Assembly (NCBI GenBank): GCA_040389005.1
Contig: JAZKAS010000032.1
Coordinates: forward strand, 17,738-49,737
Length of the DNA: 32,000 nucleotides
Source: Pseudomonadota bacterium
GTDB lineage: Bacteria; Pseudomonadota; Gammaproteobacteria; JAGOUN01
Direction: 5' to 3'
In this document: piece by piece, positions 7,157 through 20,437 of the stretch
How positions within the stretch are numbered: position 1 is the stretch's first letter
Layout: each line of letters starts with the position of its first letter
Translations under genes and position numbers: made by a program
Notes under the pieces: generated by a model
The model's input: only the letters and a program-made list of their open reading frames with translations
Told to the model about the DNA's origin: nothing
Database searches by the model: none

Positions 7157-9022
7157 ATGCCAGAGCTTGGTTTATTAGGACAACTGACAACCCAAAAATA
7201 CGTGATGGCATCGTTTTTAAAGGAGTGGTTGCCAGTTCAATCCATCGTCAATCTTTGGACAAGCGCTGGCACTTCAAGCATACTGATACGCTCCTCTCTG
7301 TTTATGAGTCCACAACACAGCCTCACTCAGCTGACCTTAGAAAAAGCAACCGTTTCGGATTTAAAAAAATTCTTGCGCGTGCTTGTGAATACTAAATTTT
7401 CTAGCCCAATCTACTCAGCCGAAGAAATTAAGAAAAAGATTTTGAGTTCACTAAATCAGCCAGACGCAGATCTCGAGTATCGACTGCTGGCATTGAATTT
7501 TTTGAATGAAAATCCATTTACATTTGAGCGACCACGTAATTACGATCGATTAACTTTATTGCTTTATTGCGCAAACCCTTCGATAGACCCAGGCTTCATC
7601 GCTAAAGAAATTCAACGGCTCTTATACAAAGCTCGAGAAAATTTTCAAAGAATAAGGCAGCGCAGCAAGTTGAATAACGAACTCCATGATCCAACAAAAG
7701 CAATTATTATAGATATTGTGCTCATGCTAAACTCAACCGCACATAAGCTCGAAAGAAATCAAGCAGGAGCACTCATTGCACAAGCATATAATTTTTGCAA
7801 GAAGGCTCGAAGCTATTTTAATTGGCGTAATATGCAGGAAACGATCTATTTATTGGCCATGCTTACCGTTAAGTATCAAGTCAAAGAGCTTCACGAGCTG
7901 GTAGAATTTCTAGCTGATTTGGATGAAAGCTCGCAAGGCAGTATATATCCAAACTCCTCTCTTTGCCGCACTATAAGCGAAGTTGCTTCTCAGCATCCAT
8001 CTACTTTTACGACCGCAATTTCCCAAGGCTTACTGAATAATATCAGCAATAATGTTGCTCACGCATACGCTGTACTAGAAGCTGAGAAAAATAATTTTCT
8101 TGGGGACAGTCAGAGCGACCTGGTGAAAAATGCGTTCTGGACACTGCTAAACCCTCCCGATATACGCCTTCAACAGAAAATGATAGAACATGTTATACAT
8201 TTATGGAGCCACCTTGGAGACAGCACGCGTGGTACGATCAGTGATAAGTTATTGGCACTGCTAAGCGATAGCGATGACAAGTATAGCCGCCCCGTTCGTG
8301 GCGAGGCAATAAGGGCTGTCACACATTTATGGAATCACTTTGGTGACAATCTGCGTGAGGCAATGAGCAATAAGTTATTTGCGCTGCTAAGCGATACCAG
8401 ATCTGACGTTTGTGGCGAAGCAATAGAAGCTGTCGCATGTTTATGGCATCACCTTAAAGACAATCAGCGTGACATTATAAAAAATACGTTATTGACGCTG
8501 CTAAGTCATGCCGATATTAATATTCGTAGCTCGGCGATAGCCGCTGCTACAGGTTTATGGGATCACTTTGAAGACAGCCAGCGTGACATCGTGAAAAACA
8601 CGCTATTAGAGTTGCTAAGCAGCCATGTCAACTTTGATTTTCGTGACGCTGCCGCAAGTTTATGGGATCAGTTTAATGACAGTCAGCGTGACAATATATT
8701 ATCTAGACTACTACGTACTAATAAAAAGGCTTTGCTCAATGATGATAAGACATTTATTATCTCTATCATCAGCGCGTTAAGCGAGAGACAAGTATCGACC
8801 ATCCTTGAAAGGATAGTCGAATTTTTAGACGATGCTGATGTCGATGTTCGTACAAAAGCGTTTGATATTTTTACGTGTATCATTTGCCATCATCCAGACC
8901 ATGACTATCATGCTCATCTCAATGCCTTGAAAGATCCATTACTAAAAGCTTATCTTGTTCATGCCGCTGATACGATAAGAGCCGCATTGCAATTGCCAGC
9001 ACCAATCAACAGCCATCCCTGA
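7157..9022 (+). CDS. HEAT/ARM-type repeat protein
   Basis: 621-aa ORF. The C-terminal half holds repeated units of the form A(I/V)xAxxxLWxHFxDSQRDxxxNxLLxLLS, typical of short HEAT (PBS-lyase type) repeats. The start is uncertain (alternative ATG at about 7205; overlapping ORF 7135..7395). Confidence 0.7.
   Translation: MPELGLLGQLTTQKYVMASFLKEWLPVQSIVNLWTSAGTSSILIRSSLFMSPQHSLTQLTLEKATVSDLKKFLRVLVNTKFSSPIYSAEEIKKKILSSLNQPDADLEYRLLALNFLNENPFTFERPRNYDRLTLLLYCANPSIDPGFIAKEIQRLLYKARENFQRIRQRSKLNNELHDPTKAIIIDIVLMLNSTAHKLERNQAGALIAQAYNFCKKARSYFNWRNMQETIYLLAMLTVKYQVKELHELVEFLADLDESSQGSIYPNSSLCRTISEVASQHPSTFTTAISQGLLNNISNNVAHAYAVLEAEKNNFLGDSQSDLVKNAFWTLLNPPDIRLQQKMIEHVIHLWSHLGDSTRGTISDKLLALLSDSDDKYSRPVRGEAIRAVTHLWNHFGDNLREAMSNKLFALLSDTRSDVCGEAIEAVACLWHHLKDNQRDIIKNTLLTLLSHADINIRSSAIAAATGLWDHFEDSQRDIVKNTLLELLSSHVNFDFRDAAASLWDQFNDSQRDNILSRLLRTNKKALLNDDKTFIISIISALSERQVSTILERIVEFLDDADVDVRTKAFDIFTCIICHHPDHDYHAHLNALKDPLLKAYLVHAADTIRAALQLPAPINSHP
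8093..8722 (+). repeat. in-frame tandem coding repeats (5 full units plus 1 partial, 105-126 bp) of the HEAT protein
   Basis: The TTATGG (LW) landmark recurs at 8201, 8327, 8441, 8555 and 8660, giving periods of 126, 114, 114 and 105 bp, all multiples of 3. Confidence 0.8.
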
Positions 9023-9152
9023 AGCGAAGCATAATGCTAAAAAACAAAATCAATCTTTAAAAAAAATGTATCTGTTTTTACAATAATAGCGCCCTTTCAT
9101 TTTGAAGTGGCGGCGGCAATCAAATCAGTGTATTAACTTATTGATAAATAAG

Positions 9153-9197
9153 GATATTAATTTTCTTATATTCACAGATGCCCCCAATGTTGCCCCC
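9153..9197 (+). repeat. copy B of bipartite element GATATTAATTTT-N13-ATGCCCCCAATGTTGCCCCC; candidate distal att junction of the tmRNA island
   Basis: About 36/45 identity to 3415..3459. The core is 18/20 identical to 19931..19950, in the same orientation. Confidence 0.6.
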
Positions 9198-9395
9198 ATG
9201 CATACCACTTGAGCCCTATCACTAATCTTTTATGAATCACAGTTTTTCATTCGCGATTCGCGAATTACGAATGAAAAATATTCAAGATTCAAGAATCCTG
9301 AATATTCATGCGATCAATAGAGCAAAAAATGAATGGCTTTTAGCCTGAGCTCTCACCCCGCAAGCTACTTGCTACTCTGCTGAGTAGTAATCAAA

Positions 9396-10109
9396 TCAAA
9401 CTTGAGTTGACCGCTCTGGAACTCTCTTGATCCTTTTTTGAGAGTGAAGGCTTATTTTTAACTCAGGGAAATTTTCAGGTAAAGTATCGATGCCATCCAA
9501 TAAGTTTGCCATAAATTCATTGGCTTTACTCTCTTGCAAAGAGTATCCCTCCCCCACTGAATGTCCATATGAATTTCCATCGACAATAGACGTTCTAAAT
9601 TTTTTGATAAAAGCAGATGTTTCTCTGCCAAAAAGAAAATAGCTTTTTCTCCAAATAAAATCAATTTCTTTTATGAGATCATCTTTCCACGTCTTATATG
9701 ATGCCACAGAATTTACTTGATCATTGCTAGGATGATAGTAATCCCATAGCACTTTATCTATTACAGAAAACACTTCATATCTTTTTTCAAACAGGTCCTT
9801 ATTGTAATTTGCTTCATCAAGCTTGTACTTAAGCGCAACAAATATTGAACCATAGGATGAAGCCAATAAGGTAAAAGCCCAAACCTCACGATAGCAACAT
9901 GATAAAATAATTGTTATTATAAAAAAAGAAACTGTGACAAGCATTGGGTCTGTTTTAAAAGGATTCCTACAAACCCAGTTTTTTACAGTAAAAAATATTT
10001 CTTTAGCTTTACTATCGAAACGACATTGCCAAGATAGACATAGCTCACTCACCCCTCCTATACCAGCAATTTTTCCAGTATTATTGCATTTTCTACATTC
10101 CCAACACAT
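9396..10109 (-). CDS. Cys-cluster (zinc-ribbon-like) protein with two transmembrane helices and a soluble C-terminal domain
   Basis: The ORF in the track starts at TTG 10133. The ATG at 10109 has GAGGAAAGG just upstream and is preferred. The N-terminus reads MCWECRKCNNTGKI...C...C. TM segments are MLVTVSFFIITIILSCCY and VWAFTLLASSYGSIFVALKY. It begins 38 bp after the upstream gene stop, which suggests an operon. Confidence 0.6.
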   Translation of the reverse strand: MCWECRKCNNTGKIAGIGGVSELCLSWQCRFDSKAKEIFFTVKNWVCRNPFKTDPMLVTVSFFIITIILSCCYREVWAFTLLASSYGSIFVALKYKLDEANYNKDLFEKRYEVFSVIDKVLWDYYHPSNDQVNSVASYKTWKDDLIKEIDFIWRKSYFLFGRETSAFIKKFRTSIVDGNSYGHSVGEGYSLQESKANEFMANLLDGIDTLPENFPELKISLHSQKRIKRVPERSTQV

Positions 10110-10146
10110 ATTCCTTTCCTCTTTAACGAGCAAGCTACTTAAGATC

Positions 10147-10959
10147 TCATTTTTTTATTACATTAGCATGCTCAGGTAAGAGTACTGCCGCAGTTTTGAA
10201 CTGGATACACTCCAATTGTGCAATAGAAAAATCAGTTTTACTATTTAAACTAAGCGCATGACTACAAATATAAGAAGCAACATCCGCAATTTGTAGCATT
10301 GATGAACCATCTGCTTTTACAATATGAGGAGAAAATGGTTTCACTGCACTTCCAGTATCATAGAAACCCGAACACCAATTATGAGCTTGCCTACGTTTCT
10401 TACCAATAAATTTTGCTTTTGTTGCGTTGTGAGAGACAGTTACTTCGCATTCTTCAAATAAAGGCCCGTGCGAACGATCAATAAAACATGCTTGTGCTAA
10501 CAAGCCGTGAAGCCCTTGTGGTGTAGGAGTAATCAAAAGCTCACAATCCAGGTTAGTATCAGAGCTTGGAAAAGTATAAACATTTTTGCATTTTTCATGA
10601 TCACAGTAAGCATATTTAATAAAGATAGGGATTCTGTTGATTATAGCAACAACTCCTTTTACTAGATCAAAAACATCTTTCTCGCCCAGATGAGCTAATC
10701 CAACCTTTTTTCTATTGTCACCACTGAATATATCCTTACAATGCAAAATGGTTGAAGCTGGAATTCTATAAAATTTTTTCAGTTCCGCAAGCCTGAACTC
10801 TAAATTAGACAAATAGTTTTTACCAATAATAGCAAAAGCATATATTAAAAGGTTATTAACCTGACTTTCATCTCCATATGCCAAATATACTGCTTGATTT
10901 TCTGTGTTAATTGCGTGAACTCCAAAAGTAGCGATAGATAAAGTAGCCTTAAAAAACAA
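10147..10959 (-). CDS. DUF3800-like protein
   Basis: Three motifs I associate with DUF3800 appear in order: N-terminal YLAYGDES, mid ILHCKDIF and C-terminal MLQIADVASYI. The start codon (TTG) is uncertain. Confidence 0.55.
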   Translation of the reverse strand: MFFKATLSIATFGVHAINTENQAVYLAYGDESQVNNLLIYAFAIIGKNYLSNLEFRLAELKKFYRIPASTILHCKDIFSGDNRKKVGLAHLGEKDVFDLVKGVVAIINRIPIFIKYAYCDHEKCKNVYTFPSSDTNLDCELLITPTPQGLHGLLAQACFIDRSHGPLFEECEVTVSHNATKAKFIGKKRRQAHNWCSGFYDTGSAVKPFSPHIVKADGSSMLQIADVASYICSHALSLNSKTDFSIAQLECIQFKTAAVLLPEHANVIKK

Positions 10960-11074
10960 TAAAAATTTTGAAAATATGTGGGGATAACTTATAAAGTTTC
11001 AATAGGCAAAGGTTCGAGCCAAAGCTAGCGAAAAAGAAGGAGGGATACTTCTAGAAGGTTACGCGACAAAAAAA

Positions 11075-11368
11075 TTAAAGCTGTTTTAAAATAGTCAATT
11101 GCTCGACTTTTTTAAGGCGGCTAAATTTCAAGATTAACAATGCTAACTCTTCCGACTCCGCATAAAAATAAGCAGCTGGCACCTTTAACGCTGTCGCAAT
11201 TCGTTTAAGCGTATGATAATCAGGCGTGTGCCTGCCCTTCTCATAATGATTCATCCGAGCGCTAGCTGAAAACTCATCCATACCTGCAGCAATACCCAGC
11301 TGCTTTTGAGACAGCTCAGCAGCTTTACGAGCTTCTTTAAGTCTTTTGCAGAGAGGAGAATCGGCCAT
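11075..11368 (-). CDS. XRE-family helix-turn-helix transcriptional regulator
   Basis: RLKEARKAAELSQKQLGIAAGMD...MNHYEKGRHTPDYHTLKRIATALKVPAAYFY is a canonical HTH_3 (Cro/C1) pattern. The gene is divergent from the helicase gene. Confidence 0.85.
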   Translation of the reverse strand: MADSPLCKRLKEARKAAELSQKQLGIAAGMDEFSASARMNHYEKGRHTPDYHTLKRIATALKVPAAYFYAESEELALLILKFSRLKKVEQLTILKQL

Positions 11369-11547
11369 TTATTGTACAAAAATAGTTCTTTAATATACTT
11401 AGAGAATCTATGTTTTTTGCACCCTCAGATACTTAGGATTCCTATACTTTTTTGTCAGCTCAATATATAGTTGCAACCAATTAATTTCCGGAAATAACTT
11501 CTGGCGGCAAATAAGAATATCAGTGGCAAAATCAAGGAGATAAAGAA

Positions 11548-14505
11548 GTGAAAATTCAACTACACGATGTGATAAAAAATGCACAGTGTTGGGATGACGT
11601 TTATCAGGAACTTTCAAAGTACAACGCAAAAGCTAGCCCTCATTCAAAGAAAAAAAGTGTGGCAGGAAAGCTATTTGAAGAGTTTTGCGAATACTATTAT
11701 AAAGCTGAGCCTTCCGAAATACATAGTTACAAAAGCGTTAATCTCTTTAAAGATACTCATAGCAAAATTATAGAAAGGCTTAAGTTAGGAAAAGTAGAAC
11801 ACGGCATAGATTTAATTTTAGAAAGTCATGAGGGTGAACTATCTGCTGTTCAATGTAAATTTACAAACGACCAAAACTCAAATGTGAGTTGGAGCAGAAA
11901 CAAGATTGCCAATTTATTTGCCGAGGGTGATTTGGGTGATTATTTTGTAGTTTTTACTAATGCAGCAAACATTGATCGACACAGCTTGACCAAGAAGCCA
12001 GGCAAACTCAAAGTCATTACTTTTAATACATTATCTCAACTATCCTCTGAAACACTTGAAAATATCAAGCGCTTAGCTGAAAAGAAGAAGCCCATTCCGC
12101 ATAAACCCTATGAGCCTAGAGACCATCAAAAACAAGCAATACAAGCCGTAATCAATGGATTCGAGAAATCAGACAGAGGGCAATTAATTTTACCCTGTGG
12201 CGCAGGTAAAACACTTACTGCCCTATGGATTAAAGACGCATTGGATGCAAAACGCACGATTGTATTACTCCCTTCGCTAGCTCTATTACGTCAGATCAAA
12301 AAGGAATGGCAAGAAAATCAAACCCATCATATTGCAAGTATTTGTGTCTGTTCTGAATCTGATATTAGCAATGAGGAAGATTGCATACAAGATAACCTAT
12401 ACGAAATAAGCGGTAAAGTTTCTACCAACCCCGATGAAATAAGAACTTGGCTGAGCCATCATGAAGAGTGTATTGTTTTTTCTACGTACCAAAGTTTAGA
12501 GGCTGTCTGTGACGCCGTTAGATCAACTTCAGTAGTTTTTGATTTAGCGATTTGTGACGAAGCACATAAAACAACAGGAGGAAAAAACAATCAATTCACT
12601 TTGATTCATTCTAACGATAATTTGCCTGTCAAAACACGTCTTTACATGACAGCGACCCCTCGTGTCGTTACTGGCGGTCTTAAAAATGTAAAAAATGATG
12701 ACATCCGTTATCTTTATGATATGAGCAATCCTAAATATTTTGGCCCCGAATTTTATTACATGAGTTTTAAGCAAGCTATAGATAGTAATATTCTTGTTGA
12801 TTATCAAATTATTGCTATCGGAATTGGTGACCAAGAATTGGCTGAAGCCATAAAGCAACGAAAATATGTAACTAACTACAGTACACTTGATGAAGTTGCC
12901 AATAATTTTGCGCTTGAAAAAATGATGCAAATGCATGGCCCTACTCATGCTTTAACATTTCATTCATCAGTATCAAAAGCCGGGGCATTTAAAAAGCGGC
13001 ATTGTGAAATATTTCCCCTAATAAAAACGGATCATGTCAATGGAAATATGACTACTAATGAAAGAGAAAAGCGCCTTCGTGAATTTAAAGCAGAAGAAAA
13101 AGCCGTCATGACTAATGCGCGTTGTTTAACCGAGGGGGTAGATGTGCCAGCAATTGATGTTGTTTACTTTTGCGACCCTAAGAATTCGAAAATTGACATT
13201 GTGCAAGCAGCAGGAAGAGCACTTAGAAAAGCAGATAATAAAAAAATAGGCTATATAGTAGTTCCAATTTTTCACACAGAGAGAGGCAGCCTAGATGAGG
13301 TTATTCAGTCAGGCCCGTTCAAAAATCTTATTAATGTAATTAGATCGCTCTCGGCTCACGATGATCGACTAGTCGCTGAAATTAATAATATTAAAAGCCA
13401 ACTAGGTAAACAAAAAACAAATACTCAACATTTTTTTATTGAATCTACAGAGAAAGTAATAACCATTATTGGGTTTGAACAGGCTCTTCAAGAAGCCTTA
13501 TTTGATCAAATTGTGAATAAAATTAAAGTGCCTTGGAGAAATTTTGTTGAAGCGAATGAATTTGCACGTAGCTTACGCTTGAAAAATGTAGATGCTTGGA
13601 AAGCTTATTGCAACACTGGAGAAAAGCCAATAGATATTCCTGAGTATCCTCAAGATATTTATAAAACTTGCGGGTGGTCAACTTGGGGCGATTGGTTGGG
13701 CACAGGGGTTGTTGCCAATCAAAATAGAAACTATAGAACCTTTTATGACGCCAGAGATTTTGCTCGTAGTTTAAATTTAGAAGGACTACAAGCCTGGCAA
13801 TCCTATTCCAAAGGAGGAAGTAGGCCAGCTGACATCCATTCACTACCATCTCGATATTATAAAGACAAAGGTTGGATCTCCTGGGGAGATTGGTTGGGCA
13901 ATGGAAACGTCGCTAATTGCAATAAAAAATTTAAACCATTTGAGGAAGCGCGTGAATTTGCTCGTAGTTTACACTTGGAGAATGGAAAAGCATGGAAAAT
14001 TTACTATACAACTCACTCTATACCAATAGATATTCCTGAATACCCTGATGATATTTACAAAAATAAAGGTTGGATATCATGGGGAGACTGGCTGGGCAAT
14101 GGGAACGTCGCTAATTTCAATAAAAAATTTAGGCCATTTGAGGAAGCACGTGAATTTGCCCGCAGTTTACGTTTAGAAAATCGCAATGCTTGGGAAGCTT
14201 ACTCTAAGAGCGGCAACTTACCCGCAGACATTCCTGCCAGCCCTCGAGGATTTTATATAGATCAGGGTTGGATATCATGGGGAGATTGGTTGGGCAATAG
14301 TAACGTTGCTAATTCCAATAAAAAATTTAGGCCATTTGAGAAAGCGCGTGAATTTGCCCGCAGTTTATATTTAGAAAATCGTAATGCTTGGGAAGCCTAC
14401 TCTAAGAGCGGCAACCTACCCGCAGACATTCCTGCCAGCCCTCGAGGATTTTATATAGATCAAGGCTGGATATCCTGGGGAGATTGGTTGGGAAAATTTA
14501 GTTAA
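11548..14505 (+). CDS. Mrr-like PD-(D/E)xK nuclease + SF2 DEAH helicase + five C-terminal 66-aa repeats
   Basis: GTG start with AAGGAG about 8 nt upstream. The Mrr_cat-like motif is HGIDLILESHEGELSAVQCKF. Helicase motifs are RDHQKQAI, LILPCGAGKTLTAL, ICDEAHKTTG, YMTATP, TEGVDVP and QAAGRALR. The repeats follow the pattern F.PFEEAREFARSL.L......W..Y.......P.DIP..P...Y...GWISWGDWLG. Confidence 0.85.
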   Translation: MKIQLHDVIKNAQCWDDVYQELSKYNAKASPHSKKKSVAGKLFEEFCEYYYKAEPSEIHSYKSVNLFKDTHSKIIERLKLGKVEHGIDLILESHEGELSAVQCKFTNDQNSNVSWSRNKIANLFAEGDLGDYFVVFTNAANIDRHSLTKKPGKLKVITFNTLSQLSSETLENIKRLAEKKKPIPHKPYEPRDHQKQAIQAVINGFEKSDRGQLILPCGAGKTLTALWIKDALDAKRTIVLLPSLALLRQIKKEWQENQTHHIASICVCSESDISNEEDCIQDNLYEISGKVSTNPDEIRTWLSHHEECIVFSTYQSLEAVCDAVRSTSVVFDLAICDEAHKTTGGKNNQFTLIHSNDNLPVKTRLYMTATPRVVTGGLKNVKNDDIRYLYDMSNPKYFGPEFYYMSFKQAIDSNILVDYQIIAIGIGDQELAEAIKQRKYVTNYSTLDEVANNFALEKMMQMHGPTHALTFHSSVSKAGAFKKRHCEIFPLIKTDHVNGNMTTNEREKRLREFKAEEKAVMTNARCLTEGVDVPAIDVVYFCDPKNSKIDIVQAAGRALRKADNKKIGYIVVPIFHTERGSLDEVIQSGPFKNLINVIRSLSAHDDRLVAEINNIKSQLGKQKTNTQHFFIESTEKVITIIGFEQALQEALFDQIVNKIKVPWRNFVEANEFARSLRLKNVDAWKAYCNTGEKPIDIPEYPQDIYKTCGWSTWGDWLGTGVVANQNRNYRTFYDARDFARSLNLEGLQAWQSYSKGGSRPADIHSLPSRYYKDKGWISWGDWLGNGNVANCNKKFKPFEEAREFARSLHLENGKAWKIYYTTHSIPIDIPEYPDDIYKNKGWISWGDWLGNGNVANFNKKFRPFEEAREFARSLRLENRNAWEAYSKSGNLPADIPASPRGFYIDQGWISWGDWLGNSNVANSNKKFRPFEKAREFARSLYLENRNAWEAYSKSGNLPADIPASPRGFYIDQGWISWGDWLGKFS
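13534..14505 (+). repeat. five in-phase tandem 198-bp repeats (last unit shortened by the stop codon)
   Basis: Unit starts fall at 13534, 13732, 13930, 14128 and 14326, an exact 198-bp period. By eye units 4 and 5 differ at only about a dozen positions; units 1-3 are progressively more diverged. Confidence 0.9.
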
Positions 14506-14528: not shown

Positions 14529-14948
14529 TTAAGCTTTCATAATTCGCTCATAAGCCCTCATTGCTTCGATCGGATCAGTAACCGTAAGTTTTAGCGGAGC
14601 AGCTATATTGGGCTGCTCTGTAATGAATTTTTTAAGTCGATCCGCCTCGTCTATATTTAAACGACCATCCAACACTGCCTGCATTATCTCATCATTTAAT
14701 TTGGCAATGCCTTTGTTGTCTAATTTTGCCGGTAATTCAATATCCAAAGGCTCATACTTCGTCTTAGGAATTAATCGCTCGATGCAAAGGCGAAGAGCTG
14801 TGCTATCACCTTCTAGCGCAAGCTCAATTGTTTTGCTAATTAACTCTTCCGCATGCGGTTCTAATAAATTTGCCAATCGCACTCGTCTACTGACTGCGCC
14901 TTTTGGTCGGCCATTAGGATTGCCTGATTTTCCAACTTTAAATGTCAT
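14529..14948 (-). CDS. DUF5681-like phage/island protein
   Basis: The N-terminal KSGNPNGRPKG motif is characteristic of DUF5681-type phage-associated proteins (from memory). The gene converges on the helicase gene. Confidence 0.5.
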   Translation of the reverse strand: MTFKVGKSGNPNGRPKGAVSRRVRLANLLEPHAEELISKTIELALEGDSTALRLCIERLIPKTKYEPLDIELPAKLDNKGIAKLNDEIMQAVLDGRLNIDEADRLKKFITEQPNIAAPLKLTVTDPIEAMRAYERIMKA

Positions 14949-15088: not shown

Positions 15089-17473
15089 TTAATAACTACA
15101 AGATTTTATCTCCCACCATATATAACTTCCTCTTTTCCCAAGGCTTTTACATCCGATGCCCAGCTGGCGTAACGCTGGAGCCACTCTCCGCAAGGCATCC
15201 GCGAAGCCTTTTGCTGTGCGCGGCCAACTATCAACACCTAGTGGTCTTTTCTGTTCTACTTTTACAAATAAATCTTTTATAGGCATGGTTATTGTTCGCT
15301 TATTTTCTGTTTCAAATAATTCAATTAATGCCGATGCAACTGGACTGGCGTCAATAGTTCTCACAATAGATTCTTCTCTGCTCTTATTGAACTCCTTTAG
15401 AAATTCTTCTGTGGATTTACCCATAACATTAGCTACCGCCATGCCAAAACGAGCAAACTCAGCTAAGCGAGTACGATTATTTTCAGGTAATTTCATTTCA
15501 GGTAAACACGCAAGTGATTGAGAAAAAATAGTTAACAAAGCTCCAAATAAATTGGAATACTCTGTTTCAAAAATACGCCAAAGCTCAGTCATTTCAACTC
15601 GATGTTGAATTTCTGGAGTTTCAACAGATATCGTCCGATCAATTAAATCTTGCGCTGTTATTGCAGCGCTAATTCCATTTAATACGATAGGACGTTTTAC
15701 TACTAATACAGATTCTTCAGCATCGCTATATAATTTTCTTTTAGCGTGTCCGCCACCTGTAGATAAAATACATAAAGCATCTTGTACTGGCGCAGCAAGA
15801 TGGCTGATATTTTCATAGCTCACAAGCCAATTAATACCCGCGCTAACAAAAATGTCATCTGTCGTTTTAGGAGCGCCTCTCAAATTACAACCGTTAGGAT
15901 CAATTAATTGTCTTAACATGCTTTGTGTTGTGCTTTTTGCGCTACCTTGCTCACCGATCAACTCTAATATGGGAAAAGGAGTATCTGGTCTCAGACAATC
16001 AATTAACCATGTAATCACTAATAGCCTGCTGTTTTCGGGGATATTTATAATTGACCAAAGCTTAGAGATGTCTGGGCCGCGAGTAGGTTCTGGCAAAGGT
16101 CTCAATGTTTCTGGGCGTATAAACCTAACAGGAGGATTATTTATTATTTGCCAGTTTCCAGCAGTAATACTGATCGCCCTGCTCTGATCATTTTCTCCTA
16201 AATCAATGTAATAAACATCTTCATATTGTGCAACACGAATATAAACATCATGACATTCACCTTTATGTCTGGCAATTCCGTTAAGAGTAGTCATCGCTTC
16301 ACGTAGCGATTGATCACGAACTGATTTTCCAGTGGATTCATAAAACTTAGCAACTAACCAATTTTTAAATGACTTTCCATCCAGCCTTCGCGCTTCTTGC
16401 GTTGCTATGTCTCGAGCGTAGGTGTCAGAATTTTTGTCATGAAAAAGCTCTACTCTTTGCTCTACAAATTTGACTAATGTAGATGACTGGCTTTGTTTGT
16501 TATCATGGCTTTCTTCCTGAATTTTATTTTCAGGTTCTTTGGTGTTTTCTAGCAAATTTTTTAATAAACTGGCGCCAAATTCTTGTAAATAGTCATTCAC
16601 GTCATAATTGGATGGCTTATCAAGAGGAAGTTCGACCCATCGACTTGAAGTAATAGAAGCGATTTCAACTGCATCATCTTCCTTGCCGCGATCTGGAACA
16701 ATAATTAATTGAGCAATAGGATATTTTTTACGTAATACCTGAGTTACTTTTCTAATGCGATGAGCGCCAAAACATACAATAGCCGCCTCTCCTATTGCTT
16801 CATTAACAGCCCAAGCTTGGCCAATACCTTCACAAATATAAATACGATTTTTTATTTCTCCTACTGCAAAAAAACCATCATTAAATTTTGCGCCGGGTAA
16901 ATTAAGTTTTTGGCTACCATCACGAGGAATAAATTGGAGGGTTTGTATTTTATCCTCGCTATAACATGGAACCACTAAAAAACCTTCAACGCTTTTTCCA
17001 CAAACTTCATAATAAGGTGCGTCAGCAGGATACACTCTTAATCCATCGCTTTTACCTTGTTTACATTGGATGTAAGGTTCGCTCAATGTCGCAGGTACGC
17101 AAAGCTGCCAAATTTTAGCAGCAGTTTCATTTTCATATTGAACGGCTGTTGAAGGCATTTTATTTTGCTGCTCTATATCAACGCGTGATGATATATGCTC
17201 AGCCAGATAATCGTTCGGCCGTTGCCAACCTTCATCAGTTGCAAGTTTATAAAGCGTTCCTACAGTAATAGGACCATCGGCTTTAAATGAATCCCAAGTA
17301 TTTTTGCAATCATCTTCACTAACATAGTTATGCCCTCCTTCACTCCAAGAGTGAAAAGCTTCAAATGTTAGTTCGGCAGATTTCGCAGCCATTCCGATGC
17401 GAACCCACTTTTCACGTGGGCAGGCAGGGTCTAAGAAATTTAGCGCGGAGTGCGCACATTCTATTTTATGCAT
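15089..17473 (-). CDS. island replication protein: PriCT-2 + Toprim + P-loop (primase-helicase, P4 alpha-like role)
   Basis: The N-terminus is PriCT-2-like (REKWVRIGMAAKSA...FHSWS...TVGTLYKLATDEGW). The Toprim-like segment is ICEGIGQAWAVNEA...IIVPDRGKEDDA. The Walker A-like motif is LIGEQGSAKSTT. Confidence 0.75.
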   Translation of the reverse strand: MHKIECAHSALNFLDPACPREKWVRIGMAAKSAELTFEAFHSWSEGGHNYVSEDDCKNTWDSFKADGPITVGTLYKLATDEGWQRPNDYLAEHISSRVDIEQQNKMPSTAVQYENETAAKIWQLCVPATLSEPYIQCKQGKSDGLRVYPADAPYYEVCGKSVEGFLVVPCYSEDKIQTLQFIPRDGSQKLNLPGAKFNDGFFAVGEIKNRIYICEGIGQAWAVNEAIGEAAIVCFGAHRIRKVTQVLRKKYPIAQLIIVPDRGKEDDAVEIASITSSRWVELPLDKPSNYDVNDYLQEFGASLLKNLLENTKEPENKIQEESHDNKQSQSSTLVKFVEQRVELFHDKNSDTYARDIATQEARRLDGKSFKNWLVAKFYESTGKSVRDQSLREAMTTLNGIARHKGECHDVYIRVAQYEDVYYIDLGENDQSRAISITAGNWQIINNPPVRFIRPETLRPLPEPTRGPDISKLWSIINIPENSRLLVITWLIDCLRPDTPFPILELIGEQGSAKSTTQSMLRQLIDPNGCNLRGAPKTTDDIFVSAGINWLVSYENISHLAAPVQDALCILSTGGGHAKRKLYSDAEESVLVVKRPIVLNGISAAITAQDLIDRTISVETPEIQHRVEMTELWRIFETEYSNLFGALLTIFSQSLACLPEMKLPENNRTRLAEFARFGMAVANVMGKSTEEFLKEFNKSREESIVRTIDASPVASALIELFETENKRTITMPIKDLFVKVEQKRPLGVDSWPRTAKGFADALRRVAPALRQLGIGCKSLGKRGSYIWWEIKSCSY

Positions 17474-18157: not shown

Positions 18158-18186
18158 AATATATCCTTATATTTATAGTTAGCGAC

Positions 18187-18633
18187 ATCCGATAAGATAA
18201 GATGCAGCTTTGCTGATTAGGGCATGATTTTTTTAAAGCGCCCGTGGGTTTATTGGCGAAATCCTTTCACCAGTTTTCTTATAGGCATTCAGAATTGATT
18301 GCTTGATTATATTTACAGTTAAGTTACCTCATAATACCTCCTTGTATTTATGCCTATGGTTAATTGGCCATGCCCGATAAGATGCAATTTTTCTGATTAG
18401 ATCAGAATTTTGTAAAAAAATATTGTGGGTTTGCTGGTGAAAGTCTTTCACCAATTTTTCTATAGACACGGTTTCTTGAATAGAAAGAGTTGATTACCTG
18501 CACTTATATTGGCGCTTTACTGCGTCCAATAAAATCCAAGCACATCAACTATATCACAATTTTACAAAAAGTCAAGCAATTTACACTCAGCAGTTTATTG
18601 GCGCGAGACTTTTACCAATTTCACTATAGGCAT
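18187..18633. repeat. iteron-like direct repeats (two ~105-bp units plus a third core copy)
   Basis: Cores are GTGGGTTTATTGGCGAAATCCTTTCACCAGTTTTCTTATAGGCAT (18244-18288), GTGGGTTTGCTGGTGAAAGTCTTTCACCAATTTTTCTATAGACAC (18425-18469) and CAGTTTATTGGCGCGAGACTTTTACCAATTTCACTATAGGCAT (18591-18633). Units 1 and 2 also share CGATAAGAT...CTGATTAG upstream. Confidence 0.75.
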
Positions 18634-18706: not shown

Positions 18707-19900
18707 TTATTTATGGCTAGATTTTAATTGATCCAAATAATCCGCCCACTGCTGCATCATCTTGCGTCTCTCCGCTAAATGTGCCGTGCGGTTATAGGCT
18801 CTACCGTTCGGATCACGCACTGCATGACCTAATTGATGCTCGATAAAATCAGGCCGTACACCCAGCACTTCATCTAATACAGTGCGTGCCATCGCTCGAA
18901 ATCCATGACCACTCATTTCTTCTTTTGCAAATCCCATACGTCGCAACGCGGCGAGCACGGCGTTATTACTCATTGGGCGTAATGTAGAGCGTGCGCTAGG
19001 AAAAACATATCTGCCTGTTCCTGTCAAAGCGTAAATCTCTTTGAGTATGTTTATTGATTGTGTAGAGAGCGGCACTAGAAGCGGTTGTCGCATCTTCATT
19101 CGTTCTGCGGGTATATTCCACTCAGCTTTTTCTAAATCGATCTCTGCCCATTCAGCGGCGCGTAATTCTCCAGGACGTACAAAAACAAGCGGTGCAAGTT
19201 TTAATGCGCATTTAGTCACGAGCATTCCTTGATAATCATCTATCGCTCTTAATAATGGCGCAATTTCTTCAGGTTGTGTGAATGCGGCAAGATGTTTTGC
19301 TTTAGTTGCTGGTAATGCGCCTTTTAAATCGGGTACAGGGTCACGTTCGCATCGACTAGTGGCAATGCCGTACCTAAAAACTTGGCTACAATTTTGTTGC
19401 ACTCGGTGCGCTGTTTCTAATGCGCCTCGCTCCTCTATACGTTGCACTACTTTAAGTAATGTTGACGCGGTGATGTCGGCTATTGACATTTCGCCAAGCC
19501 ACGGGAAGATATCTTTTTCTAAGCGCTTTAAAAGTCTGTCGCCGTGAGAGGCTGACCAATTAGCAGAATATTTAGAATGCCACTCTCTTGCGACCACCTC
19601 GAAGCTATTCTCACTTTTTGCTAAGCGGCTTGCTTTCACGGCTTTACGGTTCTCGCTGGGGTCGATCTGTTGTGCCAATAGCTTTCGAGCTTCATCGCGG
19701 CGTTCGCGAGCGTCTTTAAGGCTGACTTCTGGATAGGTGCCTAATGAGATACGTTTCTCTTTACCGTCAACGCGATACTTAAGGCGCCACCATTTACCGC
19801 CTGCGGGTGAAATCTCCAAGTACATGCCTTTCTCATCAGAGAGCTTGTAGGTTTTATCTTTAGGCTTGCTCGTGCGTATGGTTATGTCAGTCAGGCTCAT
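18707..19900 (-). CDS. int: tyrosine recombinase, P4/CP4-57 integrase family
   Basis: The N-terminal arm-binding domain reads LTDITIRTSKPKDKTYKLSDEKGMYLEISPAGGKWWRLKYRVDGKEKRISLGTYPEVSLKDAR. The catalytic region contains HGFRAMARTVL, HQLGHAV and RAYNRTAHLAERRKMMQQWADYL. Confidence 0.92.
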   Translation of the reverse strand: MSLTDITIRTSKPKDKTYKLSDEKGMYLEISPAGGKWWRLKYRVDGKEKRISLGTYPEVSLKDARERRDEARKLLAQQIDPSENRKAVKASRLAKSENSFEVVAREWHSKYSANWSASHGDRLLKRLEKDIFPWLGEMSIADITASTLLKVVQRIEERGALETAHRVQQNCSQVFRYGIATSRCERDPVPDLKGALPATKAKHLAAFTQPEEIAPLLRAIDDYQGMLVTKCALKLAPLVFVRPGELRAAEWAEIDLEKAEWNIPAERMKMRQPLLVPLSTQSINILKEIYALTGTGRYVFPSARSTLRPMSNNAVLAALRRMGFAKEEMSGHGFRAMARTVLDEVLGVRPDFIEHQLGHAVRDPNGRAYNRTAHLAERRKMMQQWADYLDQLKSSHK

Positions 19901-19930
19901 TTGGGGGCAGCAACTTTGTTGTTAATCAAG

Positions 19931-19950
19931 ATGCCCCCGATATTGCCCCC
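19931..19950 (+). repeat. copy C of the C-rich core ATGCCCCCGATATTGCCCCC; candidate int-proximal att core
   Basis: It lies 30 bp from the int start codon and 115 bp from the tmRNA 3' end. An inverted partial copy, TTGGGGGCAGCAACTTT, lies at 19901-19917. Confidence 0.6.
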
Positions 19951-20064
19951 ACTTAATGGTGGATGTCAATAGACGGTCTAAGACCAGAATGGACTTGAAA
20001 ACGGCGTAAGTACTTGATATTTTGTGCTAAGTTGGACTTTGTTGGACGTCGTGAGATGGACAAT

Positions 20065-20437
20065 TGGTGGAGGCGGCGGGAGTTGAACCCGCGTCCGCAA
20101 ACTCTACGCCTTCGCTTCTACATGCTTAGTCTTGTCTTTATTTGATTCTGCGTCGCCGACAAGAAGGCGTTCACAGAACGAAGCTTTAATTGATTTTCGG
20201 GATTTAAGTCAAAGCACCTTAAATCATTATCTTATGAATATTACCGTTCCCCAATCCCATAAGCAGAATCAGTTCGCGGCAACGACATTAAGCGGCTTTA
20301 GCTATTTCTAGATCAGCAGCGTCGTTGTAAATTGCATTATTTGCGATTATATTTACTTGTAATACGTTTAACGAGATTACTACGTGCTCGGCATGCGGCT
20401 CGGGTTTCGCTATTCACGTCGAAGCCAGAACGCCCCC
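20065..20437 (-). ncRNA. ssrA: tmRNA (transfer-messenger RNA)
   Basis: The minus strand reads GGGGGCGTTCTGGCTTCGACG at the 5' end and GGACGCGGGTTCAACTCCCGCCGCCTCCACCA at the 3' end. The internal tag ORF starts AATC|GCA AAT AAT... and ends GCC GCT TAA. Confidence 0.95.

Follow-up and report, generated by a model that had tools for sequence, protein, structure and literature searches.

At the far end of an integrated island in a metagenome-assembled Pseudomonadota bacterium, three small genes follow one another on the same strand, and the question raised by this layout is whether they make up one defence system or are separate passengers that have come to lie side by side. The locus sits in a stretch of 32,000 nucleotides, called the window here (GenBank assembly GCA_040389005.1, contig JAZKAS010000032.1, positions 17,738 to 49,737), which is low in guanine and cytosine (GC, ~38%) and whose relatives point to an affinity of the source with the Legionellales. 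A sequence-only reading of the window had proposed that the trio forms an uncharacterised defence or exclusion module composed of a regulator of the XRE family, an enzyme-like sensor and a membrane effector. Tempting as a new three-gene defence system is, we replace it with a better-supported mosaic picture and three leads. The trio is probably a mosaic: its three accessory genes are distributed independently of one another and lie as cargo at the integrase-distal end of an island that has integrated at the gene for transfer-messenger RNA (tmRNA). The controller and the DUF3800 protein belong to known kinds, the membrane family is uncharacterised, and none of the three is surprising to a specialist. 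The genes are as follows.

11075-11368, minus strand: predicted controller (C) protein of the C.Csp231I class, XRE family, 97 amino acids (aa), matching Pfam HTH_31, HTH_19 and HTH_3
10147-10959, minus strand: divergent DUF3800-like protein, 270 aa from a TTG at 10959, a predicted RNase H-like nuclease
9396-10109, minus strand: membrane protein, 237 aa from an ATG at 10109, with a zinc ribbon, an amphipathic helix, a transmembrane (TM) hairpin and a four-helix bundle

All three genes are intact, and the arrangement first described for them, with gaps of 115 and about 38 bp, holds at 115 bp (10960-11074) and 37 bp (10110-10146). A second, identical copy of the trio (locus L035) was assembled from an independent sequencing run, and the source metagenome-assembled genome (MAG) carries the NCBI tags V4496_06090/06095. 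No terminator-like site was found between the genes of the trio, and the only strong hairpins are those beyond the last gene. There, on the minus strand at 9246-9359, two near-perfect hairpins (9276-9307 and 9246-9275) are accompanied by a small stem and then a U-run (~9323-9345); the fold of 9230-9400 has an energy of -46.6 kcal/mol and a z-score of -2.71, and the region is the probable end of the transcription unit.

The evidence that carries the mosaic reading is comparative. Hidden Markov models (HMMs) of the DUF3800-like and membrane families were both run on the six-frame open reading frames (ORFs) of all fetched loci, including the viral locus L034. Besides the window, these comprised 14 loci with a DUF3800-like gene (L001, L018-L029 and L034) and about 12 distinct loci with a membrane-family gene. 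The membrane family was found in 0 of the 14 and a DUF3800-like gene in 0 of the ~12; only the window and its identical copy hold both. The XRE gene was likewise without a counterpart at the 14 other DUF3800-like loci, no Pfam family recurred among the 31 neighbours of the DUF3800-like genes, and the flanks of these genes showed no conservation across lineages. Because each gene occurs alone in other genomes, we read the three as separately acquired accessory genes and not as a three-part defence system, and the proposed module of regulator, sensor and effector loses its footing, as its pair is not conserved. Base composition differs as well: GC is 31-41% at the membrane-family loci and 35-60% at the DUF3800-like ones, and GC at third codon positions is 0.23 and 0.27 in the DUF3800-like and membrane genes of the window, which are mutually alike, against 0.39 in the XRE gene.

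The expectation of a mobile-element or defence setting, on the other hand, was borne out, in that relatives of both cargo genes lie in mobile-element, toxin-antitoxin or defence-type contexts. Other DUF3800-like genes are mostly solitary, often placed between convergent or divergent unrelated genes, and their neighbours include tRNA genes (L021, L027 and L029), a prophage integrase-excisionase pair (L023 and L034) and AbiEi/AbiEii (L001). Among the neighbours of the membrane family, those of defence or toxin-antitoxin type are AbiEii (L011), MazE/PIN (L012), HEPN (L005) and a CopG-type antitoxin with a primase (L003); those of mobile-element type are KfrA/Tn3 (L002), TraU (L008) and integrase genes or fragments (L007 and L017). 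The family member at L009 lies beside housekeeping genes. The closest homologue of the membrane protein (L007, positions 1-980; 85% identity) lacks the zinc ribbon and adjoins no DUF3800 gene; its 5' end has been replaced by the N-terminal part of a prematurely stopped P4-type integrase gene, a recombination scar.

These data bear directly on the alternative that the trio is one operon encoding a three-part abortive-infection or exclusion system, in which regulation falls to the XRE protein, the sensing or processing of a signal from the invader to the DUF3800 protein, and the killing or depolarisation of the cell to the zinc-ribbon, two-TM protein. Such a system would suit the co-oriented genes, the 37-bp gap, the hairpins confined to the end of the array and the cargo position beside a restriction-like nuclease-helicase; retron VII and Cas12a systems moreover employ DUF3800 as accessory or effector, and 3 of 51 members of the membrane family weakly match a SLATT-type model of PADLOC (best E=0.0029). 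We nevertheless consider it unlikely. The pair is present in none of ~26 other loci of either family, the two families differ in GC and phyletic range, the closest membrane homologue is not beside a DUF3800 gene, the membrane protein of the window has neither a PADLOC match nor a significant fold match to pore-forming or effector structures, and each family can clearly exist as a lone gene. That a nuclease-triggered membrane abortive-infection system has been newly assembled as one operon in this lineage, or more modestly that the membrane family is by itself a new exclusion or defence family, of one gene, carried by Legionellales mobile elements, seems to us a long shot.

Several points weigh against the mosaic reading. 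Co-orientation, the tight spacing of the last two genes and the missing internal terminator give the trio the look of an operon. Few loci could be compared and several of their contigs are short, ~9 of the DUF3800-like loci having 300 bp or more downstream, although the outcome was uniform throughout. In L016, an XRE homologue (69% identity) lies beside a membrane-family gene, although the two are convergent there and a different gene, encoding a 262-aa protein, lies between them. Finally, the AlphaFold2 model of the DUF3800-like protein, built from a 3-sequence alignment, reached a mean predicted local distance difference test (pLDDT) score of 34.5. Given the operon-like layout and comparative data alone, a lineage-specific functional link among the three genes may exist.

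That the regulator, encoded by the first gene, is an XRE-type helix-turn-helix protein is confirmed by the Pfam families listed above, by a full-length match to the PADLOC model Control_protein (PDLC03667, E=4.9e-28) and by a match of residues 6-90 to the Csp231I C protein in the PDB (3lfp, E=8.5e-24). It is ~50% identical to C.Csp231I across 85 residues and 54% identical to the Xre protein of the type I-F3b CRISPR-associated transposon of Aeromonas salmonicida S44, and relatives were found on 370 plasmids by tblastn. On these similarities we assign it to the C.Csp231I class of controllers. The site of C.Csp231I is CTAAG-N5-CTTAG, of the class CTWAG-N5-CTWAG, and occurs as two sites 18 bp apart (PMC4321490). 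Two candidate operators of this class, the distal one an exact pattern match, lie in the 179-bp region (11369-11547) that separates the XRE gene from the divergent nuclease-helicase.

11431-11445, minus strand: distal operator (OL-like), TATAG-GAATC-CTAAG, one degenerate half-site
11397-11411, minus strand: proximal operator (OR-like), CATAG-ATTCT-CTAAG, one degenerate half-site, 19 bp from the distal operator

When 200-bp upstream regions of the XRE gene were compared among the window, L016 (an uncultured Legionella MAG, 69% identity) and four plasmids (L030-L033), two inverted-repeat boxes were present at ~-80 and ~-44 from the start in 6 of the 6 loci. The likeness to the C.Csp231I/C.EcoO109I class ("motif 8") and to the I-F3b Xre thus extends from a protein of ~100 aa to two 15-bp sites directly upstream of its own gene, each with a 5-bp spacer between 5-bp inverted repeats, and to a nuclease-type gene downstream in the same orientation. 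The window differs in its degenerate left half-sites (TATAG and CATAG, not CTTAG), in a downstream gene that is 115 bp off and encodes a DUF3800 protein, and in an island that lacks the pair of methyltransferase and classical restriction enzyme; ORF and Pfam scans of the island found no methyltransferase, and hence no association with a restriction-modification system.

Experiments with the S44 Xre showed binding at two sites upstream of xre, of which the distal one activates and the proximal one represses (bioRxiv 10.1101/2020.07.02.184150). By analogy, the controller of the window would bind its two 15-bp operators, 19 bp apart and immediately upstream of its own start, and would activate its own promoter from the distal site at low concentration and repress it from the proximal site at high concentration, so that entry of the island into a naive cell would bring a burst of expression followed by a clamp. 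The DUF3800-like gene, 115 bp downstream, is probably expressed at least in part by read-through from the controller promoter, since no terminator separates genes 1 and 2. In the 115-bp gap we found one weak promoter-like site (11002-10973), no terminator and no Rfam match, and its fold is no better than that of shuffled sequences (z-score = +0.17). A pattern search found no further XRE operator in this gap or before the membrane gene, and control of genes 2 and 3 would therefore pass only through such read-through. The controller may in this way throttle the DUF3800-like gene, and possibly the membrane gene too, in the manner of a controller-restriction (C-R) operon with its order of C and then nuclease.

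The operator pattern is also matched exactly by ATAGACGGTCTAAG at 19969-19982, between the integrase start and the tmRNA gene's 3' end, and the controller might touch integrase expression through it; with one mismatch allowed, the pattern has 13 matches in the window against 14.4 expected by chance.

What lies next to XRE homologues varies by locus: an operon of adenosine deaminase, NTP pyrophosphatase and SIR2 genes, a DEAD-box helicase, TniQ-Cas, or a 262-aa protein without a family match. Because the neighbours vary, we regard the controller and its operators as a portable cassette. In L016 (5082-6171), the 69%-identical controller is followed, with a 17-bp overlap, by the gene of that 262-aa protein, and the membrane-family gene of the same locus is convergent to this pair and 70 bp from it. 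That a C.Csp231I-type controller with paired operators travels with varied defence-type cargo, including a SIR2 operon, helicases, CRISPR-associated transposons and now a DUF3800 gene, makes the cassette useful for predicting cargo that is toxic or needs delayed expression.

The middle gene has TTG start candidates only and no clear ribosome-binding site; the NCBI annotation takes the TTG at 10884 as the start, for a protein of 245 aa, and family alignments favour the longer form of 270 aa. The motifs by which a DUF3800 protein was first suspected (DES, HxKD(I/L)F and LQxAD) are indeed present, as GDES (residues 29-32), HCKDIF (73-78) and LQIAD (222-226), and they fall on conserved columns of a 94-member family alignment, in which G29, D30, S32, H73, A225 and D226 are invariant or nearly so. 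The N-terminal D-E and C-terminal QxxD motifs, which define the DUF3800 signature (PMC7736814), are thus both present, with D30 nearly invariant and D226 invariant across the 94 sequences. Assignment by HMM stood at the level of the family and not at that of the protein: alone, it matches Pfam DUF3800 (PF12686) over profile positions 2-147 of 149 with 18.0 bits (E=0.0048), short of the gathering cut-off of 21 bits. An indexed search returned a single non-self relative (P0002, 44% identity). A profile built from the protein and this closest relative retrieved 253 proteins from 1.84 billion representatives at E<=1e-3, of which 49 reach <=1e-30 and most have 255-285 aa; PF12686 is matched by 43 of the 94 aligned members (best 1.9e-8), and no other family recurs. 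As the protein's own match is below threshold, we base the DUF3800 assignment on this family-level, intermediate-sequence evidence, by which gene 2 belongs to a divergent, solitary DUF3800 subfamily.

DUF3800 proteins have an RNase H/H2-like fold (PMC7736814; PMC10910872; PMC12669027), serve as an accessory protein of type VII retrons (PMC7736814) and of Cas12a2/a3 loci (PMC10910872; PMC12669027), and are encoded beside eleven different structured RNA motifs (PMC5737381). The fold of gene 2 is taken from this literature because the alignment behind our own model was too shallow. Like the retron VII-A2 accessory and the TPR-DUF3800 proteins of Cas12a2/a3 loci, gene 2 spans the whole Pfam profile, has the D-E and QxxD motifs and is carried by a mobile element. 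Unlike the retron clade, which is without the Q of QxxD (PMC7736814), it keeps that residue, and unlike the known DUF3800 systems it belongs to a solitary subfamily that the Pfam cut-off largely misses. No reverse-transcriptase domain was found in any ORF of the island and no Rfam match in 8800-11800 that would indicate a retron partner; ORF and Pfam scans of the island found no CRISPR-Cas or TPR domain near the gene, and Rfam gave no match to the DUF3800-I to XI RNA motifs in the window or in 13 related loci. The protein had no match in PADLOC, NCBIfam or PHROGs, none in plasmid or phage collections by tblastn, and its family none in a profile scan of genome contigs; a sequence-profile search of the PDB with the family alignment returned nothing meaningful. 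In a PADLOC scan of the family, 6 of the 94 members gave weak matches to PDC-M04A.

With its predicted RNase H-type fold and conserved D-E/H/QxxD positions, the DUF3800-like protein is most likely a stand-alone, metal-dependent nuclease of the RNase H type, and our best guess for its target is invader nucleic acid; the context of the gene suggests a role in defence or exclusion. With ~250 representative clusters at tRNA-adjacent or integrase-proximal spots, the solitary subfamily offers a simple single-gene context in which to approach the nuclease function of DUF3800. At two of its loci, L025 and L026, an exact 18-bp direct repeat brackets the gene ~300 bp upstream and ~350 bp downstream, which would fit a small insertion.

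A different pairing would make the XRE and DUF3800-like genes a toxin-antitoxin-like addiction pair, a DNA-binding antitoxin or controller with a toxic nuclease, and leave the membrane gene unrelated. XRE-family antitoxins are common, the XRE protein weakly matches NCBIfam antitoxin families, the order of C and then nuclease resembles that of C-R operons, and relatives of both cargo genes adjoin toxin-antitoxin modules. To this may be added that, in Legionella pneumophila HL77S, a DUF3800 gene that is strain-specific and lies in a variable region scored as essential in transposon sequencing (Tn-seq) alongside antitoxin genes (bioRxiv 10.1101/2020.10.01.323287); such essentiality is unexpected of a simple nuclease effector. 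Yet the gap of 115 bp contrasts with the tight coupling usual in type II toxin-antitoxin pairs, an XRE partner accompanies 0 of the 14 other DUF3800-like genes, and XRE homologues adjoin many different genes. The XRE protein also has the full architecture of an autoregulating C protein, with operators, and not that of an antitoxin that binds a protein. An addiction pair is in our judgement improbable.

The third gene encodes a membrane protein much as first described, with a cysteine cluster, two TM segments and a soluble tail of ~140 aa. Its longest ORF covers 9396-10133, and the likely start is the ATG at 10109 behind AGAGGAAAGG, a strong ribosome-binding site. Cysteines lie at residues 2, 5, 8, 24 and 29; a strong hydrophobic segment (~55-73) and a moderate one (~76-95) are joined by a loop of 2-3 residues and followed by a tail of 142 residues, and the second TM helix must be read with the caveat that it is merely moderately hydrophobic. 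The AlphaFold2 model (pLDDT 88.4, predicted TM-score (pTM) 0.71) places a beta-hairpin zinc ribbon at 2-29, a helix over 27-47, a hairpin of helices (55-72 and from 76 onward), and a long helix that runs into a four-helix bundle (~96-225). The soluble domain could in this sense be classified as a predicted four-helix bundle, and no Pfam family or significant fold match was found for the protein.

A first search found 8 relatives, and a profile search extended the family to 56 clusters, none with a Pfam domain. The conserved core starts inside the second hydrophobic helix and reads FGxIFxALKYKLDQANYHKDLFEKRY ... RKSYFLF ... FIxxFR ... FPELKI (in shorter consensus, ALKYKLDxANYxKDLFEKRY...RKSYFLF...FPELKI), while the N-terminal CxxC...CxxC zinc ribbon, with a DnaJ-like CxxCxxxG, is optional, being present in 20 of 51 members. 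Neither the PDB nor BFVD held a significant fold match, a sequence-profile search of the PDB with the family gave nothing meaningful, and the window protein had no match in PADLOC, NCBIfam or PHROGs, nor in plasmid or phage collections by tblastn. The family was not found in a scan of viral contigs; in genome contigs it was found at 3 loci, including the uncultured Legionella MAG. Judged by its matches, the family is rare, uncharacterised, without a Pfam match and confined to low-GC, Legionellales-like bacteria, and a small family of this kind with a confident predicted structure is the third of our leads.

Whether the architecture is typical of abortive-infection effectors, as had been proposed, could not be shown, there being no PADLOC match and no significant fold match for the protein. 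It shares with two-TM, SLATT-like conflict effectors a membrane hairpin followed by a cytoplasmic helical region and a place among mobile-element, toxin-antitoxin and defence genes. It differs from them in its optional zinc ribbon and in the lack of a partner enzyme (for example, a nucleotide cyclase or a reverse transcriptase), and the likeness is one in which homology is not established. The 3 weakly matching members of the family hit the PADLOC model RTasSLATT, which we treat as a lead and not as a result, and the Pfam SLATT family is absent among the matches listed (25 of 73 matched families). The zinc ribbon and TM hairpin suggest a protein of the inner membrane that faces the cytoplasm. 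In the model, the TM hairpin would be the anchor, and the most likely place of both the zinc ribbon and the four-helix bundle is the cytoplasmic side; the protein most likely acts alone, and our best guess is an accessory function in exclusion or of abortive-infection type, as its context suggests. The membrane gene is immediately flanked, in the gaps on either side (10130-10140 and 9360-9370), by identical 11-bp direct repeats (AAGTAGCTTGC on the minus strand), which may mark insertion of the gene as a cassette or may be due to chance.

Another reading lies outside defence: the membrane protein could be a lineage-specific accessory of intracellular Legionellales, for example an effector that is secreted, or could serve a mobile element in entry exclusion or maintenance, and the DUF3800-like gene would be a separate moron, an accessory gene that stands alone. 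The low-GC loci of the family, the uncultured Legionella MAG among them, accord with this, as do neighbours that include TraU, KfrA, Ank, WD40 and giant TPR proteins, and a HEAT-repeat protein is encoded next door in the window. We identified no secretion signal or effector family in the membrane protein, however; several family members adjoin toxin-antitoxin or defence genes instead, and the predicted zinc ribbon and TM hairpin suggest an inner-membrane protein facing the cytoplasm. We hold this reading to be quite doubtful.

Decay is a further explanation for genes thrown together at an island end: the trio might be remnants without current function. The DUF3800-like gene, with its TTG starts and lack of a clear ribosome-binding site, could be taken for such a remnant, and relatives of the membrane gene are frameshifted (L017) or truncated (L007). 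All three ORFs of the trio are nonetheless intact and as long as is usual in their families, conservation extends to the catalytic-type residues and the family core, a strong ribosome-binding site precedes the membrane gene, and an identical trio was assembled from an independent sequencing run; decay therefore appears very unlikely. In L017 (5983-6590), the membrane-family gene is frameshifted into ORFs of 127 aa and 75 aa and is likely a pseudogene; it adjoins an integrase gene and a Fic/Doc-like gene, and the same MAG holds an intact copy (L015).

The mosaic reading places the three genes in the cargo of an island, and the following features define that island.

20065-20437, minus strand: tmRNA gene, the island anchor (ARAGORN and Rfam)
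18707-19900, minus strand: P4-type tyrosine integrase, beyond the tmRNA 3' end (Pfam Arm-DNA-bind_3, Phage_int_M and Phage_integrase)
15089-17473: PriCT-2/Toprim primase, an island gene
14529-14948: DUF5681 gene, an island gene
11548-14505, plus strand: Mrr-type nuclease and superfamily 2 (SF2) helicase, 985 aa (Pfam Mrr_cat_2, ResIII and Helicase_C)
9176-9198, plus strand: 23-bp direct repeat at the integrase-distal island end, 21/23 identical to its partner at 19929-19951
9109-9116, plus strand: 8-mer GGCGGCGG, identical to the tmRNA 3' end at 20072-20079

The 23-bp repeat pair brackets an island of ~10.9 kb integrated at the tmRNA gene; the partner falls between the integrase and tmRNA genes, and the position of the trio as cargo at the integrase-distal end is thereby upheld. 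The tmRNA 3'-end 8-mer has 4 matches in the window against 0.33 expected, and its occurrence at 9109-9116 is suggestive only of a possible remnant of the attachment core. P4-like satellites and those of the phage-inducible chromosomal island (PICI) type resemble the island in their tyrosine integrase beside a tRNA-like gene (here tmRNA), PriCT/Toprim primase and small regulators, and in restriction-like and uncharacterised cargo at the far end with a direct repeat as boundary; unlike them, the island has no identified capsid-redirecting or packaging genes. A scan of viral contigs with the island primase gave no match, and no related island with alternative cargo was retrieved, so that the status of the cargo site as a variable hotspot is one we infer.

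The nuclease-helicase on the other side of the operators starts at a GTG (11548) behind AAGGAG and matches PADLOC REase_MTase_IIG (1.6e-100) and LlaBIII in the PDB (4xqk, 6e-61). It resembles the type ISP enzymes LlaBIII and LlaGI in the nuclease and helicase modules of their N-terminal half (E=6e-61 and E=1e-54) and differs from them in lacking the methyltransferase and target-recognition domains; in their place, at the C-terminal end, are ~5 tandem repeats of 198 nt (66 aa; ~13625-14495) with the motif KGWISWGDWLG, for which no Pfam or NCBIfam model was matched. Since the operators lie 100-150 bp from this gene, in the shared intergenic region, control by the XRE protein that is shared with the nuclease-helicase is possible. 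The genes divergent from the plasmid XRE homologues were considered as a split version of the nuclease-helicase and rejected, as they have no sequence similarity to it.

Elsewhere in the island, a 120-aa ORF lies between the primase gene and three ~180-bp direct repeats (families D4, D5 and D14) at 18176-18633, which are followed by the integrase gene; these repeats may act as iterons or as an origin, or may be arrayed arm sites for the integrase. Outside the island, the chromosomal neighbour at 7157-9022 encodes a HEAT-repeat protein of 621 aa, and HEAT-repeat proteins are of a eukaryote-like kind known among the effectors of intracellular bacteria. Inside this gene, at 8606-8619, lies a perfect operator-like palindrome, TTAGAGTTGCTAAG, which is probably there by chance.

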